Positions 54,752-61,513 of a DNA stretch of 64,000 nt are shown piece after piece. The notes under the pieces were generated by a model. It saw only the letters and a list, made by a program, of their open reading frames with translations. It had not been told where the DNA came from and searched no databases. The position numbers were made by a program, and so were the translations under genes. How positions within the stretch are numbered: the stretch's first letter is position 1; the number at the start of each line of letters is the position of its first letter. Source of the stretch: an uncultured Muribaculaceae bacterium (GTDB lineage: Bacteria > Bacillota_I > Bacilli_A > RF39 > UBA660); the NCBI GenBank assembly GCA_964369845.1, contig CAYJFJ010000003.1, forward strand, positions 2,563 through 66,562, read 5' to 3'.

Positions 54752-55867
54752 CTATAAAACAAATGCTATTAATGTGTTTGATCCTTTATTTACTATTTTT
54801 GTCATCGTATCTCCTAATTTATATCTTGTATTGTCTGGCATCATACTAAGTTTTGCTTTTATACCTTCACCTACAACTGTTTCAAGGGATCTTCCAAATA
54901 TTTCGCTTTTCCAAATATTACTTGGGTCTGATTCGTAATCTTTCATTAAATGATCAATTAATTCTTTTGATTGAAGTTCTGTTCCTATGATAGGTTCAAA
55001 TGTTGATTCAACATCTACTCTTACCAGATGTATAGAAGATGCTACTGCTTTTAATTTTACACCATATCTAGAACCTTGTTTGATAATTTCTGGTGGAGTT
55101 AATTTCATGTCCATCGTTCCAGGATACATTATGCCATAACCTGTTGATTTTGCCATTTTGAGAGCATCTTTAACTCTTTCAAATTCATCTTTTCCATCTT
55201 TATATGATGAAAACATTTTTATTAAACTTGCTTTATTCATTACTGCTTCACCTAATAAATCTTTAAGTGTTTCGTTATATAATTCTTCTGAGCTTTCTAA
55301 GTTTATTGTTACTACTCCAGTAGCAGCATCTAAAGATGATATATAAGTATTATTTATATAACTACTTTCTTTAAAATAATTTATAACATCGTCTATATCT
55401 TTTACTTTTTCTACATTAGTAATGCTACCTTTCATCATTTCTAAATAATGTTTTTTTATTTCACTTTCTTTTGATAATGCATGTATCCATTCTGGAATAC
55501 TCATTTTAATATCTAATACTGGAAATTCATAAAGCGCAGCTTTTAAAATTTCCATAATATCTTTTTCATTCATTTTATCTACTGCAACTGGCATTACAGG
55601 TACATTATATCTTTCAGACATATCTTGTGATAAATTAATAGCACTTTCACTTGTAGGATTATTTGTATTTAATATTACAATAAATGGTTTTCCTATATCT
55701 TCAAGCTCACCAATAACTTTTTCTTCTGCATCAATATATGCTTCTCTTTTAATATCGCCAAAAGATCCATCTGTTGTAACTACTATACCTATTGTAGCAT
55801 GGTCCTTAATAACTTTTTCTGTACCCATTTCAGCTGCCTCAACAAATGTTATAGGCTCATCATACCA
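54752..55867 (-). CDS. spoIVA: Stage IV sporulation protein A, 3' segment of a split gene (codons ~123-492)
   Basis: ORF 54752..55828 (MGTEKVIKDHATIGIVVTTDGSFGDI ... KIVNKGSNTLIAFVL) is colinear with the SpoIVA middle and C-terminal domains. The same frame stays open upstream to 55891 (GYHDFITYW YDEPITFVEAAE), and YDEPITFVEAAEMGTEKVIKDH aligns with B. subtilis YEEPIPFHEAAEIGTRKVIQEH. Confidence 0.92.
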   Translation of the reverse strand, partial: WYDEPITFVEAAEMGTEKVIKDHATIGIVVTTDGSFGDIKREAYIDAEEKVIGELEDIGKPFIVILNTNNPTSESAINLSQDMSERYNVPVMPVAVDKMNEKDIMEILKAALYEFPVLDIKMSIPEWIHALSKESEIKKHYLEMMKGSITNVEKVKDIDDVINYFKESSYINNTYISSLDAATGVVTINLESSEELYNETLKDLLGEAVMNKASLIKMFSSYKDGKDEFERVKDALKMAKSTGYGIMYPGTMDMKLTPPEIIKQGSRYGVKLKAVASSIHLVRVDVESTFEPIIGTELQSKELIDHLMKDYESDPSNIWKSEIFGRSLETVVGEGIKAKLSMMPDNTRYKLGDTMTKIVNKGSNTLIAFVL

Positions 55868-55891: not shown

Positions 55892-57487
55892 CTAGGCAAG
55901 AAAATTATCACAAGTCTTGACTCTGAATATTATCTCCACTTGTTTATCTTTTGTTATATATATTTTTTCAATTATTTTGTTTATCATCTCTTTTGTTGGA
56001 TTTTCCATATTTAAAAAACTTTTTACTATCATTTTATAATTTTCTAACTCTGAATTATTTTCTAAAACTGTATACTTCTCTTTCTCATAATCTATTAAAG
56101 ATATTTTAAGGTCAGCTATTTCTTTTTCTGTAGCCATATTCATTCTTTGAAATCTTTCAGCAGTTATTAAACCTTCAACTTTATCATCATATAAATTGTC
56201 AATTTTTATCTCTAATTTTTCGATTTTCTTTTTTGCTTCACTTATTAACTTATTAAGAGGTCCTAAAGGATCTTTTTTATTTGTTTCAAGATAATCAATA
56301 AATTCTTTAGAATCTAAATTTGCACATAGTTCTCTAACCTTATTATATATAGTCTTTTCTAACTTTTCATAACTAACATGATGAGAAAAGCAAATATTGT
56401 GTGCACTATACTTTCTATAAGTATTACAGTTCATACTTGTTCTATCTCTTTTCTTACAGTAACTAATACCCATTCTAGCATCGCAATCTTTACAAAATAC
56501 TAAATTACCTAAAATGTATTCAACATTTCTTCTTGTTTCGCTATAAACATTAGATTTATTGCGAAGTCTAACTGCCCTTTTAAATGTTTCTTCATCTATT
56601 ATAGGTTCCATCGCATTTTCTATAACAATCCATTCTTCTTTAGGTTTAGTTATTCTTTTTTTTGATTTATAGTTTAAATTCATACCTTTATTTTGAACTA
56701 ATTTGCCCGTGTACATTTCATTTTTTAAAATATTACATAATGATGTATGCTTCCATATATGTGGATACTCTAATTTTTCTGCTCTTGAATTCGTTTTTTG
56801 ATGCATTATGGGAGTTGGTATTTTTTCTTTTGTTAGTAAATTAGCTATAACTTTTGTTCCATAACCTGAAACATAGAGTTCAAATATTCTTTTAACAACT
56901 GGAGCAGCGACTGGATCTATTATTAATTTGTGCTTATCTTCTGGATCTTTCATATAACCATATGGACAAGTTCCTCCAATAAATTTTCCTGCTTGCCTCA
57001 TCGCCATAATAGCTGATTTCACTTTTTTTGATATATCTTTTGCATACATATCATTCATACCTAATCTAAACGGCATCATATCAGCACCATCACATTTATC
57101 ATTGAATGTATCTATATTATCGTTAACAGCTATATATCTAACTTTCTTATCTGGAAAGTATTTTTCAATATAATAACCTGTCTCAATGTAATCTCTACCT
57201 AACCTTGATAAATCTTTAGTTACTATCATATTTATTTTACCAAGTTCAATATCTCTAATTAACCTTTTAAATCCAGGTCTATTAAAATTAAGTCCAGAAA
57301 ATCCATCATCTATATAAGTATCAACTATTTCAAAATTTTCTCCTAAACTATTAATGAAGTTTGTTAAAAGTAATCTTTGGTTAGATACACTTTCTGATTC
57401 TATATCATCTCCATCTTCTCTTGATAGTCTTATGGATAATCCGACTTTGTAAGTCTTATTATCAATTATATATTTGCTTGTAAACAC
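55892..57487 (-). CDS. Large serine recombinase (SpoIVCA/SprA-like)
   Basis: 531 aa, GTG start behind an AAGGAGG RBS. Resolvase catalytic domain (VGLSIRLSREDG, YIDDGFSG, VTKDLSRLGRD), recombinase domain, Cys-rich zinc-ribbon region (CKDCDARM...CNTYRKY) and a C-terminal coiled coil. Confidence 0.93.
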   Translation of the reverse strand: MFTSKYIIDNKTYKVGLSIRLSREDGDDIESESVSNQRLLLTNFINSLGENFEIVDTYIDDGFSGLNFNRPGFKRLIRDIELGKINMIVTKDLSRLGRDYIETGYYIEKYFPDKKVRYIAVNDNIDTFNDKCDGADMMPFRLGMNDMYAKDISKKVKSAIMAMRQAGKFIGGTCPYGYMKDPEDKHKLIIDPVAAPVVKRIFELYVSGYGTKVIANLLTKEKIPTPIMHQKTNSRAEKLEYPHIWKHTSLCNILKNEMYTGKLVQNKGMNLNYKSKKRITKPKEEWIVIENAMEPIIDEETFKRAVRLRNKSNVYSETRRNVEYILGNLVFCKDCDARMGISYCKKRDRTSMNCNTYRKYSAHNICFSHHVSYEKLEKTIYNKVRELCANLDSKEFIDYLETNKKDPLGPLNKLISEAKKKIEKLEIKIDNLYDDKVEGLITAERFQRMNMATEKEIADLKISLIDYEKEKYTVLENNSELENYKMIVKSFLNMENPTKEMINKIIEKIYITKDKQVEIIFRVKTCDNFLA

Positions 57488-57515
57488 TTATCCTCCTTTT
57501 AAAAATTTTAGTTTA

Positions 57516-57623
57516 TTAACTTTTATATATAAATCTTTTTTCATAGTAAGAAAAAATACAAGGTTTTAAAACATCTTTCAATTTACTACCGTTTTCATTA
57601 AAAAAGCAAATTGTTTCATACAT
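57516..57623 (-). CDS. 35-codon ORF directly upstream of the recombinase (speculative accessory/directionality factor)
   Basis: Own translation MYETICFFNENGSKLKDVLKPCIFSYYEKRFIYKS. A strong AAAGGAGA RBS lies 6 nt upstream, and the ORF ends 28 nt before the recombinase GTG. There is no homology evidence and it may not be expressed. Confidence 0.3.
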   Translation of the reverse strand: MYETICFFNENGSKLKDVLKPCIFSYYEKRFIYKS

Positions 57624-57921
57624 ATTTTTATCTCCTTTTAATTATTTAATTTTATTAACACAAAAAAAATATATTCCAACTCTGAATATATTTTTAATAT
57701 ACATATTTTTAATTATCTAACATTTAAAACAAATTCTGTTAATGAGTTTTTTATGTAACATTTTTCAGATGGTATATTTAAATATCTAATTAGACCACAT
57801 AATGTGATAGTTATCTATTAGAAATTACCTTTTTTTTTACTAAATTTTGAATATCATATTTATCTCTGGTGTTACTTAAAAATATTAAATTCTAAATGTT
57901 CTTCATTTAATTATTTTCTTG

Positions 57922-58983
57922 TTATTCACTTTTAAATAATTTGATAGGAGATATTTTAAGTATTTTTTTATATCCGATATAACTAATTAGTAATAATATT
58001 GTTACTAAAGTTATATATGAAATAATCAACGAACTAATTAAATTTATCAAAGAAAAATAAATTTGTATGTCCTCAAATATAATAAATATCATACAGTATA
58101 TACACATCACTAAAACATTAATTATTAAATACAACTTTGTAATTTTTTTTAGTAAAGCTTCTATAACTAATTTTATAATAGCTATATTTCGAAATCCGCT
58201 AGTTTTTAATATTGCTATATCGTATTTATACTCATTAATCATAAAACTAATAATAAATCCTATAATAAATATCAAAAATGTAGACACTACTAAAATACCT
58301 AATTTCACATAATTTATGATATTAGTAAACAGTTCTATATCTGTAATTCCAGAGCTATCATTCATATACATACTAAGTCCTTCTTTTTCCAATAATGAGT
58401 TGAATTTTTCTATATTATCATAATCATCTATTATTACTTTAAATTCATTAGCATTTTTTAACGCGTACATTTGCATAATATTTTCAGAAACTATTATTTT
58501 GTTAAAACCTACTTTTTCATCGTTATATTCTGATATTATTTCTAATTTTAGAATTTGATTTCCAACTTCAAGATTTATATAATCTCCAACATCTTTATTT
58601 AGTGATTTTGGAACTATTGCTTCGATATTGGATATTTTATTAAACTCACTATAGTAATTAACTTCGTATACTTTGCTGTTTTCTTTAAATAATAAATCTT
58701 CATATGAATCATATATGCCATTTATATATTTTGAAGTTTCGAAATGATTTTTGTAGCTTTCTATTATTAATTCATTTTCACTGTATTCTTCAAAATGCAC
58801 ATTTAAAACTCTATTTTGTATTTTATTTTTTATTGAAATATTATAGTAATTATTTAAATAAGTTAAACTAGATAATAATATTACGAAAGATAATATAAAA
58901 ATTGCAAATACACCCGATTTTTCATTGTATTTCTTTGACTGAAAATAAAACGTCCTATTCATCTTTTTTAACCAACCCTTCAA
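57922..58983 (-). CDS. FtsX/MacB-type ABC transporter permease (4 TM with extracytoplasmic domain)
   Basis: 353 aa. TM1 (VFAIFILSFVILLSSLTYL), an extracytoplasmic domain of about 170 aa, then three C-terminal TMs. Overlaps the upstream permease gene by 29 nt. Confidence 0.7.
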   Translation of the reverse strand: MKGWLKKMNRTFYFQSKKYNEKSGVFAIFILSFVILLSSLTYLNNYYNISIKNKIQNRVLNVHFEEYSENELIIESYKNHFETSKYINGIYDSYEDLLFKENSKVYEVNYYSEFNKISNIEAIVPKSLNKDVGDYINLEVGNQILKLEIISEYNDEKVGFNKIIVSENIMQMYALKNANEFKVIIDDYDNIEKFNSLLEKEGLSMYMNDSSGITDIELFTNIINYVKLGILVVSTFLIFIIGFIISFMINEYKYDIAILKTSGFRNIAIIKLVIEALLKKITKLYLIINVLVMCIYCMIFIIFEDIQIYFSLINLISSLIISYITLVTILLLISYIGYKKILKISPIKLFKSE

Positions 58984-60184
58984 TTATAGTTGAATTTGTT
59001 AATTTTCCATTAACTTTTTTAGTTGTTAAATTAAGCGAAACAAAAATCAATAATATTGAAAATATAATAGACTCTATCGAAATTACTATAGGAATTTTTA
59101 AAAATAAATATGGTCTATAGAAAATAAGTATGTTATAAATCACATAAATAGTGATGATAATTATTAATAGAATCATAGTAATAATTAAAGCTAAAAAATT
59201 ATTTTCAAATATATTCAGTTTTACCAAATCTCTTTTTCTAAAACCGACAGTTCTCAAAATATTGAATTTACTTAATGAATTATTTATGTCTTTCATATAT
59301 ATATTGTTAATTATAATTAGTGAGAATATTAAAGATACTGCTAAAATAATATATATTATAATATTTACTATACTAATAATCTTTGAATTTACATAAGTTA
59401 CTCTTGATGCTGTTAACTCTAAATCAATAATTTGCTCTATCACCGTTTCTACATTATCTGTATTATCAACTTGTACTATTATTGAAGATAACTGATTTTC
59501 AATATCTATATACTTAAAACTTTCTTCATTTATTGTTTGTACTAATAAATTATTTACATAACATTTATTTTCATCTGAGTAATAGGAATTATTATCAAAA
59601 GTTCCGACAATCGTTAATTTTTTAGATATTGTATTCACTTCAAATAAGTTTTCATCTACATACTGGTTATAAGAAATATCTATGTTAGTTCCTATAAATT
59701 TTGTCATATCTATAAAATCATTATTAGTTAAGTTGGTTATTTCTTCTAAATTATCCTCAGGATAAAATCTACTTGGACATATGACTTCATTATCATTTTC
59801 TATATTTTTTCCTTGAGACACTTTAGGTCTTGTTTTTTCATTGGATCCTAATAACCAAAAATCTCCTTTAAAATGTTCGTGGTTTATGTTTGCTGTAATA
59901 TAAAACTCATTATCCAAAATAACATTGTCTACATGTTTTAGTTCTTCTAAATTTTTTATAGTTTCTTCTTCCGACATAATTTTTTCGTTTACATCTACAT
60001 AAATGCTTCTATACCAAATATCTTCTTTTATTCCTTTATTTATGTATGTATCCATGGTACTTTTAAACGAAAATGAAGATATTAAAAGTAAAGATATACA
60101 AATTAATATTATTATTATTTTCTTCTTTTCTTTACCTTTGTAACTATTTTTGCAACCATAATCTTTAAATATACTATTATTCAT
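58955..60184 (-). CDS. FtsX/MacB-type ABC transporter permease (4 TM with large extracytoplasmic domain)
   Basis: 409 aa. TM1 (IIIILICISLLLISSFSF), an extracytoplasmic domain of about 230 aa, then three C-terminal TMs with the FtsX-like TVGFRKRDL loop. Overlaps the ATPase gene by 8 nt. Confidence 0.72.
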   Translation of the reverse strand: MNNSIFKDYGCKNSYKGKEKKKIIIILICISLLLISSFSFKSTMDTYINKGIKEDIWYRSIYVDVNEKIMSEEETIKNLEELKHVDNVILDNEFYITANINHEHFKGDFWLLGSNEKTRPKVSQGKNIENDNEVICPSRFYPEDNLEEITNLTNNDFIDMTKFIGTNIDISYNQYVDENLFEVNTISKKLTIVGTFDNNSYYSDENKCYVNNLLVQTINEESFKYIDIENQLSSIIVQVDNTDNVETVIEQIIDLELTASRVTYVNSKIISIVNIIIYIILAVSLIFSLIIINNIYMKDINNSLSKFNILRTVGFRKRDLVKLNIFENNFLALIITMILLIIIITIYVIYNILIFYRPYLFLKIPIVISIESIIFSILLIFVSLNLTTKKVNGKLTNSTIIEGLVKKDE

Positions 60185-60860
60185 ACATTTCTTCTTTCAG
60201 TTTACCTTTTTCCATCTTTAATATTTTATCTGCATATTTTGCATTAGATGTATTGTGACTAACAACTATTACGCATTTGCCATTTTTGGCTAAATCATTT
60301 AATATTTTCATTATTATTTTTTCATTATTTTCATCTAGGTTACCAGTTGGCTCATCTGCTAGAATGATGGACGGATCATTAACTAAAGCTCTTGCAATGG
60401 CAATTCTTTGTTGCTCTCCACCTGATAATTCATTAGGAAAGTGATTTTTTCTATTTTCTAATCCCACTAGTTTTAATAATTTCAAAACTTTTTCTTCTCT
60501 AGATTTAGAATCCATTTCTTTATTGAGATACAATGGAATTAAAATATTTTGAAAAGCAGTTAAAGAATTATTGAGATAATAAGATTGAAATACAAACCCT
60601 ATATGTTTTTTTCTTAAATCTGCTAGTTTGTTTTCATTTAAATTAATTACTTTTTCCTCTATAATTGAAATATCTCCACTTGTAAATTCATCTAAAGTAG
60701 CCATACAATGCAGTAAAGTTGACTTACCTGATCCACTATTTCCCAGTATTAAATATAAATTATTATTACTGAAACTATAATTTATTCCATCAACTGCTCT
60801 TATTATACTTTTATCTTTTTCGTAAATCTTTTCACAATTTTTCAATTCTATAAAATTCAT
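60177..60860 (-). CDS. ABC transporter ATP-binding protein (MacB/LolD-like)
   Basis: Walker [11 protein letters not shown]-loop, signature LSGGEQQR, Walker [13 protein letters not shown]-loop VVSHN. GGAGG RBS. Confidence 0.92.
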
Positions 60861-60916: not shown

Positions 60917-60947
60917 AAAAAGCCACATAAAATTTATGCAACTTTTT
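60917..60947 (-). terminator. Hairpin with flanking U-run in the ABC operon leader (possible attenuator/terminator)
   Basis: Plus strand AAAAAGCCACATAAAATTTATGCAACTTTTT. It has 6 outer and 6 inner base pairs around a 3x3 internal mismatch. On the minus RNA it is followed by UGUUUGUU. It overlaps the stop of the 24-codon ORF. Confidence 0.3.
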
Positions 60948-61116: not shown

Positions 61117-61141
61117 GGTATCACTAATTAACAACCTACCA
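61117..61141. repeat. Element end / recombination site (spoIVA-5'-proximal junction)
   Basis: Plus strand GGTATCACTAATTAACAACCTAC|CA. This is an inverted copy of 55868..55890, matching at 7+8 outer positions with a different 8-nt spacer. TACCA lies at 61137..61141. Confidence 0.75.
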
Positions 61142-61513
61142 TGGACTCTTAACCATCCTAGGATTTCCTTCTTCATCTGTAAAACCATTTGCCTCTGGTA
61201 CTACGTAACCTACGCAATCAACTAATTTTATTTTAGTTGAGAATTCACCTACTTTAATTTCTGCACCACTTGAAGGCACAAATTTAGGTTCTGTTGTCAT
61301 AATAGTTTTTCCTTCAGCACTTTGAGGGATTTCATCTAGACATTTTTTCTTTTCATATTCATCAGTAATATTAGGTACCACTAAATTTTCAATAAATCTT
61401 TTTATAAATGTAGATTTACCAGTTCTAACAGCACCTACTACTCCTAAATATATTTCTCCATTTCCCTTTTTAGATATTGAAGAAATTATTTGTTCTTTAT
61501 TCATAAACACCAA
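61136..61513 (-). CDS. spoIVA: Stage IV sporulation protein A, 5' segment of a split gene (codons 1-~122, Walker A region)
   Basis: GEIYLGVVGAVRTGKSTFIKRF...QSAEGKTIMTTEPKFVP...KLVDCVGYVVPEANGF...GNPRMVKSPW* is colinear with the B. subtilis SpoIVA N-terminus (GDIYLGVVGAVRTGKSTFIKKF...NGPRMINTPW). The TAG stop (61136..61138) is supplied by the first bases of the element. The likely true start is ATG at 61504 (MNKEQ). Confidence 0.92.
   Translation of the reverse strand: MVFMNKEQIISSISKKGNGEIYLGVVGAVRTGKSTFIKRFIENLVVPNITDEYEKKKCLDEIPQSAEGKTIMTTEPKFVPSSGAEIKVGEFSTKIKLVDCVGYVVPEANGFTDEEGNPRMVKSPW

Follow-up and report, generated by a model that had tools for sequence, protein, structure and literature searches.

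A conserved 35-codon gene upstream of a large serine recombinase as candidate directionality factor in an element that splits spoIVA

How is the recombinase of a small element that interrupts the sporulation gene spoIVA expressed, and is the DNA in front of the recombinase gene a mere spacer or a part of the recombination machinery? The question is raised by positions 57488-57921 of the 64-kb stretch of DNA analysed here (hereafter the window), i.e., the 434 nt that separate the stop codon of the last permease gene of the element's cargo from the start of a gene for a large serine recombinase (LSR). An earlier, sequence-only reading of this stretch suggested that transcription from the spoIVA promoter may run through the element into the recombinase gene, and singled out a 35-codon open reading frame (ORF) ahead of that gene as a candidate recombination directionality factor (RDF). 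On balance, our analysis favours the view that the stretch is the head of a recombination module, an RDF-recombinase operon, rather than a passive spacer crossed by read-through.

The element measures 5.3 kb and carries one recombinase. The 5' part of spoIVA (ORF 61136-61513, minus strand) matches positions 1-122 of the SpoIVA profile, and the 3' part (ORF 54752-55828, minus strand) matches positions 135-492. The sequence TGGTA is common to both junctions, at around 61141 and 55863, where it falls within Trp-Tyr codons of spoIVA, so that precise excision would restore the reading frame, with the gene rejoined at the Trp codon. The same Trp codon is the insertion point in the related loci L001, L006, L090, L091, and L092. 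By its sequence layout, the element is one of the sporulation gene-intervening elements of the skin, SPbeta, gin, and vfbin type: a mother-cell gene is split, its frame can be restored, and an LSR gene lies at one end, with its stop codon about 25 nt away from the spoIVA junction.

Almost certainly, the 35-codon ORF is a real gene and a conserved partner of the recombinase. When the closest LSR homologues (56-76% identity) were traced to their contigs, each close relative proved to have an ORF of 34-42 codons and of the same sequence type directly upstream of, or overlapping, the LSR gene, although the cargo is unrelated: a 2609-amino-acid (aa) surface protein (L001-3), an SNF2-type helicase (L006-8), an S26 signal peptidase with a 1258-aa Big_3 protein and a bPH protein (L090), or the type IV secretion system coupling proteins of loci resembling integrative and conjugative elements (ICEs; L004/5 and L092). 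The first four sequences share sixteen invariant residues, a ribosome-binding site (RBS) of the GGAG type stands at the equivalent place in all relatives, and gene callers predicted the ORF independently in several assemblies.

The linkage extends well beyond the close relatives. An iterative hidden Markov model (HMM) search, confined to ORFs ending between -60 and +300 nt from the LSR start, recovered a homologue in 61 of 92 loci and tied the MYE-type peptides to longer (~60-aa) KVNLKFKENGKSLNEII types found upstream of LSRs only 37-45% identical. A second set, consisting of 80 independent metagenome loci with LSRs at most 54% identical, was searched over the whole length of each locus on both strands; a family member was found just upstream of the LSR gene in 71 of the 78 eligible loci, including all 33 in which the LSR is at least 40% identical, and no match to the family was found elsewhere in these loci. 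The host genome contains exactly one LSR and one member of the small-ORF family.

The substitution pattern points in the same direction. Between the window and L001, synonymous changes affect 10.5 of 15 sites and non-synonymous changes 9.5 of 69, giving a ratio of non-synonymous to synonymous substitution rates (dN/dS) of 0.07, and most other pairs fall at 0.1-0.4; judged by these ratios, the ORF is under purifying selection. Conservation in related elements, which the sequence-only reading had proposed as a check on the small ORF, is thus borne out by both sets of loci and by the dN/dS value. A functionless open frame, arisen by chance in an AT-rich spacer, might be suspected in a region of 22% G+C for an ORF so short and lacking any database family match. 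Yet its amino acid sequence is conserved at the same position in more than 130 loci, its residues are kept while synonymous sites are near saturation, its RBS is conserved, and its prediction was independently made by gene callers in several assemblies. Conservation across loci and the substitution pattern therefore exclude a chance ORF, an explanation to which we attach a vanishingly small probability.

A search of 1.84 billion representatives placed small ORFs of this type in a family of 106 clusters (50% identity) whose members are all 31-91 aa long; they occur in mini-elements that split spoIVA, in ICE-like elements, and in genomic islands of gut Bacillota. Scans against Pfam and NCBIfam returned no match for the small ORF or its longer relatives, tblastn of the small ORF against plasmid and phage collections gave none either, and in the PDB, whose sequences were searched with the family profile, the only match was an insignificant one (E = 0.23), to the helix of the SAP domain in ERI1. 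In the literature searched, the family is not described, nor is spoIVA described as a rearranged gene. The conserved core consists of a Y-x-hydrophobic-x-x-F motif, a Gly turn, and an amphipathic helix. An AlphaFold2 model built with the family alignment reached a pLDDT (predicted local distance difference test score) of 81, with residues 1-14 predicted to be extended and residues 15-34 to form a helix.

The most divergent of the spoIVA-inserted relatives, L090, deserves separate mention. Its small ORF (L090:7891-8019) encodes 42 aa, overlaps the LSR start by 19 nt, and has lost both the conserved Gly and the EKRF tail; dN/dS against the other sequences reaches 0.5-0.9. This copy may be relaxing or, alternatively, co-adapting to its own recombinase.

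The sequence-only reading had found no convincing stem-loop followed by a U-tract between 57922 and 57487. This needs to be revised: an AT-rich hairpin with a 12-bp stem, the 3' arm of which runs into a partly paired tract of eight U residues (U8), occupies positions 57695-57662 (Table 1). Its folding energy is -10.9 kcal/mol (z = -3.8), and none of 200 shuffled sequences folds as well; the consensus terminator scan missed it because that scan demands at least three G-C pairs. Equivalent hairpins with a U-run precede the small ORF in six of six relatives (L001, L004, L006, L090, L091, and L092), 60-110 nt upstream of it and just past the last cargo gene, and several of them are strong (-15.9 kcal/mol and z = -3.5 in L092; also those of L006 and L001). 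This recurrence suggests that the module is built as a transcription unit of its own, and in the window the hairpin probably acts as a weak intrinsic terminator, closing the cargo operon and insulating the genes for recombination from it. Followed along the minus strand, the stretch shows, in this order, about 225 nt of AT-rich spacer (part of the 298-nt spacer opened by the permease stop), the hairpin with U8, a strong RBS, and the 35-codon gene; 28 nt past this gene, the LSR gene starts at its GTG, behind an RBS of its own.

These observations bear directly on read-through, according to which the LSR would be expressed from the spoIVA promoter, which is sigma-E dependent, or from the promoter of the ATP-binding cassette (ABC) cargo operon, so that excision would be timed by the transcription of spoIVA. 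The ABC operon, the 35-codon ORF, and the recombinase gene do indeed all lie on the strand of spoIVA, as does every gene between its 5' part and the LSR. However, nearly all genes of the window are on the minus strand and its GC skew is uniformly negative; co-directionality is the default strand bias here and, for this reason, uninformative. The AT-richness of the hairpins at 60947-60917 and 57695-57665 could make both of them leaky, and the small ORF has no near-consensus promoter in front; nevertheless, two hairpins with U-tracts and 3.5 kb of cargo stand between the spoIVA promoter and the LSR gene, and the cargo has its own TTGACA-17-TAGATT promoter and leader hairpin. Furthermore, a terminator-like hairpin is found just upstream of the small ORF in every relative, in some cases much stronger than in the window (L092, L006), and relatives with 8-30 kb of cargo, such as the 7.8-kb gene in L001 or the ICE genes in L092, could not plausibly depend on spoIVA. 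Read-through expression of the LSR from either source is accordingly improbable in our estimation, and spoIVA read-through as the controlling mechanism, the suggestion of the sequence-only reading, slightly more so. For this particular copy, leaky read-through from the ABC operon is possible, given an AT-rich and weak hairpin whose U-tract ends so close to the small gene.

That short distance, about 24 nt between U8 and the RBS of the small ORF, also constrains where the promoter of a two-gene operon could be: it must overlap or precede the hairpin, a requirement which fits a leaky transcript from upstream as well. No near-consensus promoter precedes the small ORF in the window. A sigma-70-like candidate, TTAAAA-18-TATATT, overlaps the hairpin and is one of several candidates without a ranking; promoter-like sites show no enrichment in the region (79 found versus 71.7 expected). 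The sigma-E-like pair noted in the sequence-only reading is present and, as that reading itself cautioned, at chance level: for its loose form, ATA-N16-18-CATA, the genome has 0.23 matches in every 300 nt of a strand. The pair is not conserved, the pattern being absent from the same place in L001, L006, L090, and L091. A genome-wide scan for ATAWW-N16-18-CATAMA yielded 126 scattered matches with no sporulation-gene pattern. We also considered, and rejected, a shared sporulation promoter represented by the 13-mer ATGTATATWAAAA, for which the region upstream of spoIVA and the spacer contain the only exact matches in the window, the 12-mer ATGTATATWAAA having seven matches in the genome; the word shared exactly measures no more than 9 nt, a length that random intergenic pairs have in common 37% of the time (P = 0.37).

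The relatives differ in how the recombinase itself is transcribed. In L006, L091, and L092, the interval between the small gene and the LSR gene contains a near-consensus sigma-A promoter (TTGAAA/TTTAAA-17-TATAAT with an extended TG) that scores 10-11 out of 12 and ends 43-46 nt ahead of the start codon, and L004 has a weaker extended -10 box, TGATACAAT, in the same interval. Such an internal promoter is absent from the window, where the gap is 28 nt, from L001 (38 nt), and from L090, in which the genes overlap. The window copy thus appears to have lost a separate recombinase promoter, leaving the small gene and the LSR gene as one putative two-gene unit. In the relatives, the internal sigma-A promoter would supply the recombinase alone for integration, with the small protein coming from another promoter for excision; where the internal promoter is gone and the genes are fused in one operon, as in the window, L001, and L090, the arrangement would fit a reduced element dedicated to excision.

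At the internal promoter, an inverted repeat brackets the sigma-A -10 box together with a TTACAAGATTTTGTAA palindrome that is conserved in the LSR leader of L006 (L006:7945-7985), L091 (L091:2230-2270), and L004 (L004:7960-7990). Its outer arms display a compensatory change, GATAT..ATATC in L091 versus GATGC..GCATC in L006. The window lacks this repeat, which might control LSR expression either as an operator or as an RNA structure.

What, then, does the small protein do? It is the product of the only non-cargo gene of the element besides the LSR, and it is linked to the LSR across unrelated cargo and under purifying selection, which together make it a candidate RDF. As is expected of the RDF class, it is encoded with its presumed cognate recombinase, 28 nt upstream of the LSR gene and inside the 5.3-kb element. 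The suggestion of a mini-RDF made in the sequence-only reading is therefore strengthened, and we give somewhat better than even weight to this role. By binding to the recombinase, the 35-aa protein would enable it to carry out attL x attR recombination, in the manner of GirX, SprB, and CD1234. The predicted monomer, an extended N terminus plus one helix, is compatible with recombinase binding. That the ORF is shorter than known RDFs, a worry voiced earlier, has lost its force: GirX has 42 aa, and the essential part of SprB is limited to its C-terminal helix, residues 37-58 (PMC11722253), so that a 35-residue strand-plus-helix peptide is large enough for an RDF.

In function and layout, three known systems come closest. 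One is gin, which splits gerE in Bacillus cereus ATCC 10987 (PMC5595907). Like the element studied here, gin is a non-phage element in a mother-cell sporulation gene, with an LSR, GirC, and a very small accessory protein, GirX. GirX is a motif-less RDF needed for GirC excision and inhibits integration in vitro; girC and girX are expressed together in sporulation (PMC5595907), as the fused operon of the window would ensure. The two elements differ in target (gerE versus spoIVA), in size and recombinase content (28.6 kb with three recombinases versus 5.3 kb with one), and in that the role of GirX has been proven in vitro, whereas that of the window protein is predicted. In the skinCd element of Clostridioides difficile, also an LSR element in a mother-cell gene, the RDF CD1234 binds the recombinase CD1231, is required for excision, and depends on sigma-E and SpoIIID (PMC5025042). 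There, as in L006, L091, and L092, the recombinase is made from a sigma-A promoter and the RDF is regulated separately, unlike in the window copy, which has no separate recombinase promoter. CD1234 is, however, 72 aa long and not adjacent to the recombinase, and for its gene a sigma-E promoter has been mapped and a SpoIIID box is present, whereas no such promoter is recognisable or conserved at the small gene. SPbeta in spsM likewise pairs an LSR, SprA, with a small RDF, SprB, of 58 aa (PMC5499854, PMC11722253). The essential part of SprB, a loop and one helix of about 22 residues, matches the 35-aa protein in size and in its predicted extended-plus-helix shape; SPbeta is, nonetheless, a whole prophage with sprB under its own sporulation- and stress-induced control, and no sequence similarity between SprB and the small-ORF family was detected, the family having no PDB or Pfam match.

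Several points weigh against an RDF-recombinase operon. The hairpin ahead of the small ORF contains a single G-C pair and may terminate poorly. A -10 box of the CATA type between the terminator and the small ORF is absent in L001, L006, L090, and L091. Neither a characterised RDF nor an entry of Pfam, NCBIfam, or the PDB shows significant sequence similarity to the family, and the clade shows a faint TnpW-like resemblance. Some LSRs of mobile elements are not known to need an RDF, e.g., TndX of Tn5397 and TnpX of Tn4451, the latter not being known to require an accessory factor for excision. Finally, if RDF and recombinase were always made together from one operon, the confinement of excision to the mother cell would be left unexplained.

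A competing explanation is that the small protein does act with the LSR, though in another capacity than that of an RDF, which would make it comparable to the orphan protein TnpW (PF14202). TnpW is very small, its Pfam model spanning 35 positions; it has a Y-x-V-x-hydrophobic-x-F motif, a turn, and an amphipathic helix, and it is encoded in Tn4451-type elements, which are mobilised by an LSR, TnpX. Among TnpW examples fetched from genomes of the same class as the host, the tnpW gene lies within 1.5 kb of an LSR gene in three of nine sampled loci. Profile-profile comparison by hhalign gave P = 4.5e-4 (probability 33%) with one family profile and P = 9e-4 (probability 23%) with the 106-member profile; both alignments pair the same strand-turn-helix core and both are below significance. 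At the same time, none of the 106 family representatives matches PF14202 at E <= 0.01 or reaches its gathering score of 25 bits. The relationship, judged from these profiles, is a faint lead and not a membership.

Conceivable roles of this kind are those of a leader for translational coupling, a stabiliser or chaperone, an inhibitor by which the recombinase is kept silent, or a small regulator of the module promoter. For coupling speaks the fact that in most family members the small-ORF stop overlaps the LSR start by 18 nt, a classic layout of this kind; in the window, however, the LSR has a strong RBS of its own, 28 nt downstream of the small ORF, so coupling is not needed, and a pure leader would not keep a strand-plus-helix at dN/dS of about 0.1-0.3 across LSRs that are 37-76% identical. 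A regulator is suggested by the inverted repeat over the internal LSR promoter of L006 and L091, whose compensatory change hints at an operator; against this, a 35-aa protein with a single predicted helix has no recognisable DNA-binding fold. As for the parallel with TnpW, the two independent profiles that align the same core and the proximity to LSR genes in the sampled loci support it, while the subsignificant scores and the absence of PF14202 matches do not. Taken together, we consider a partner other than an RDF rather unlikely, and retain the RDF as the preferred reading of the small protein.

A broader proposal can be put forward tentatively. A large and so far undescribed family of RDFs, perhaps distant kin of TnpW, may serve a whole clade of LSRs in gut and soil Bacillota, and the 35-aa protein would be its smallest member. 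Separate promoters in the mobile, ICE-like members would contrast with a fused operon in the spoIVA mini-elements, the latter converting a mobile integrase unit into an excision-only developmental switch for the gene of the spore-coat ATPase. Sporulation intervening elements in which an LSR is paired with a small accessory factor are a known arrangement; the family itself is, by sequence, unnamed and at best remotely TnpW-like.

RDFs share no common fold and have usually been found singly (PMC12286644, PMC11795197), and they are the bottleneck for making LSRs reversible in genome engineering. If the small protein is an RDF, the family would provide RDF candidates of 31-60 residues at a fixed position relative to the LSR gene, with more than 100 sequence clusters already paired with recombinases, and hence a ready-made panel of cognate pairs; structural studies would gain an RDF of nearly minimal size. 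It would also be the last missing part of a recombination unit targeting spoIVA, and the sister elements would offer a contrast between two layouts, one with a separate recombinase promoter and one with a fused operon.

The features of the element are collected in Table 1. On re-examination of the sequence, the coordinates, RBSs, and GTG start of the sequence-only reading proved accurate; the GTG at 57487 is further supported as the LSR start because relatives carry ATG at the aligned position. In the cargo operon, the last gene has itself no match in library scans of Pfam and NCBIfam, and the leader hairpin (-13.9 kcal/mol, z = -2.8) downstream of the operon's promoter is a possible attenuator.

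Table 1. Features of the spoIVA-splitting element (window coordinates).
Feature	Positions	Strand	Remarks
ABC operon promoter TTGACA-17-TAGATT	61069-61041	-	
ABC operon leader hairpin with U-rich tract	60917-60947	-	Downstream of TTGACA-17-TAGATT
ABC ATPase (cargo)	60177-60860	-	
FtsX-like permease (cargo ABC operon)	58955-60184	-	
Second permease-like gene, last of cargo ABC operon	57922-58983	-	Overlaps and follows the FtsX-like permease; stop 57922-57924
Sigma-E-like pair AAATATA-17-CATAAAAA of the sequence-only reading	57779-57748	-	Chance level, not conserved
Sigma-70-like candidate promoter TTAAAA-18-TATATT	57697-57668	-	Overlaps hairpin; one among several, unranked
AT-rich hairpin AAAAAUAUAUUC / loop AGAGUUG / GAAUAUAUUUUU with U8	57695-57662	-	Stem 57695-57684 / 57676-57665, loop 57683-57677, U8 57669-57662; based on fold energy, shuffles, relatives
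Shine-Dalgarno sequence of small ORF, AAAGGAGA	57638-57631	-	7 nt ahead of ATG
35-codon gene, product MYETICFFNENGSKLKDVLKPCIFSYYEKRFIYKS	57516-57623	-	Based on conservation, linkage, dN/dS, family size, fold model
Shine-Dalgarno sequence of LSR, AAAGGAGGA	57499-57491	-	
LSR, 531 aa, GTG start	55892-57487	-	Resolvase, Recombinase, and Zn_ribbon_recom domains

The host draft genome comprises 1.09 Mb in 36 contigs, with about 25% G+C and 86% completeness, and the 13 genomes sampled from its family span 0.8-1.3 Mb. This is unusually small for a presumed spore-former, yet the window contains spoIVA, spoVIF, and other sporulation genes.

Two of the ICE-like relatives are informative as to attachment sites. 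In L092, which encodes a TraG-type coupling protein, the LSR gene is followed, in the interval L092:9582-9728, by a palindromic attP-like site, AGGTATCAC...ACTCGGTAC...GTGATAGGGATACC, and, about 70 nt beyond it, by a second GGTATC...ACTCGG-TGGTATGATGAA junction into spoIVA; this double site suggests a tandem or remnant attachment site beside the active one. In L004, the unit of small ORF and LSR (66% identical LSR) resides in an ICE-like element outside spoIVA, with the flank ...CTTGG-TGGTACCCCTTATG... (L004:9597-9660) upstream of a CotZ-like gene, and insertion at this different target indicates that the LSR clade has been retargeted at least once.

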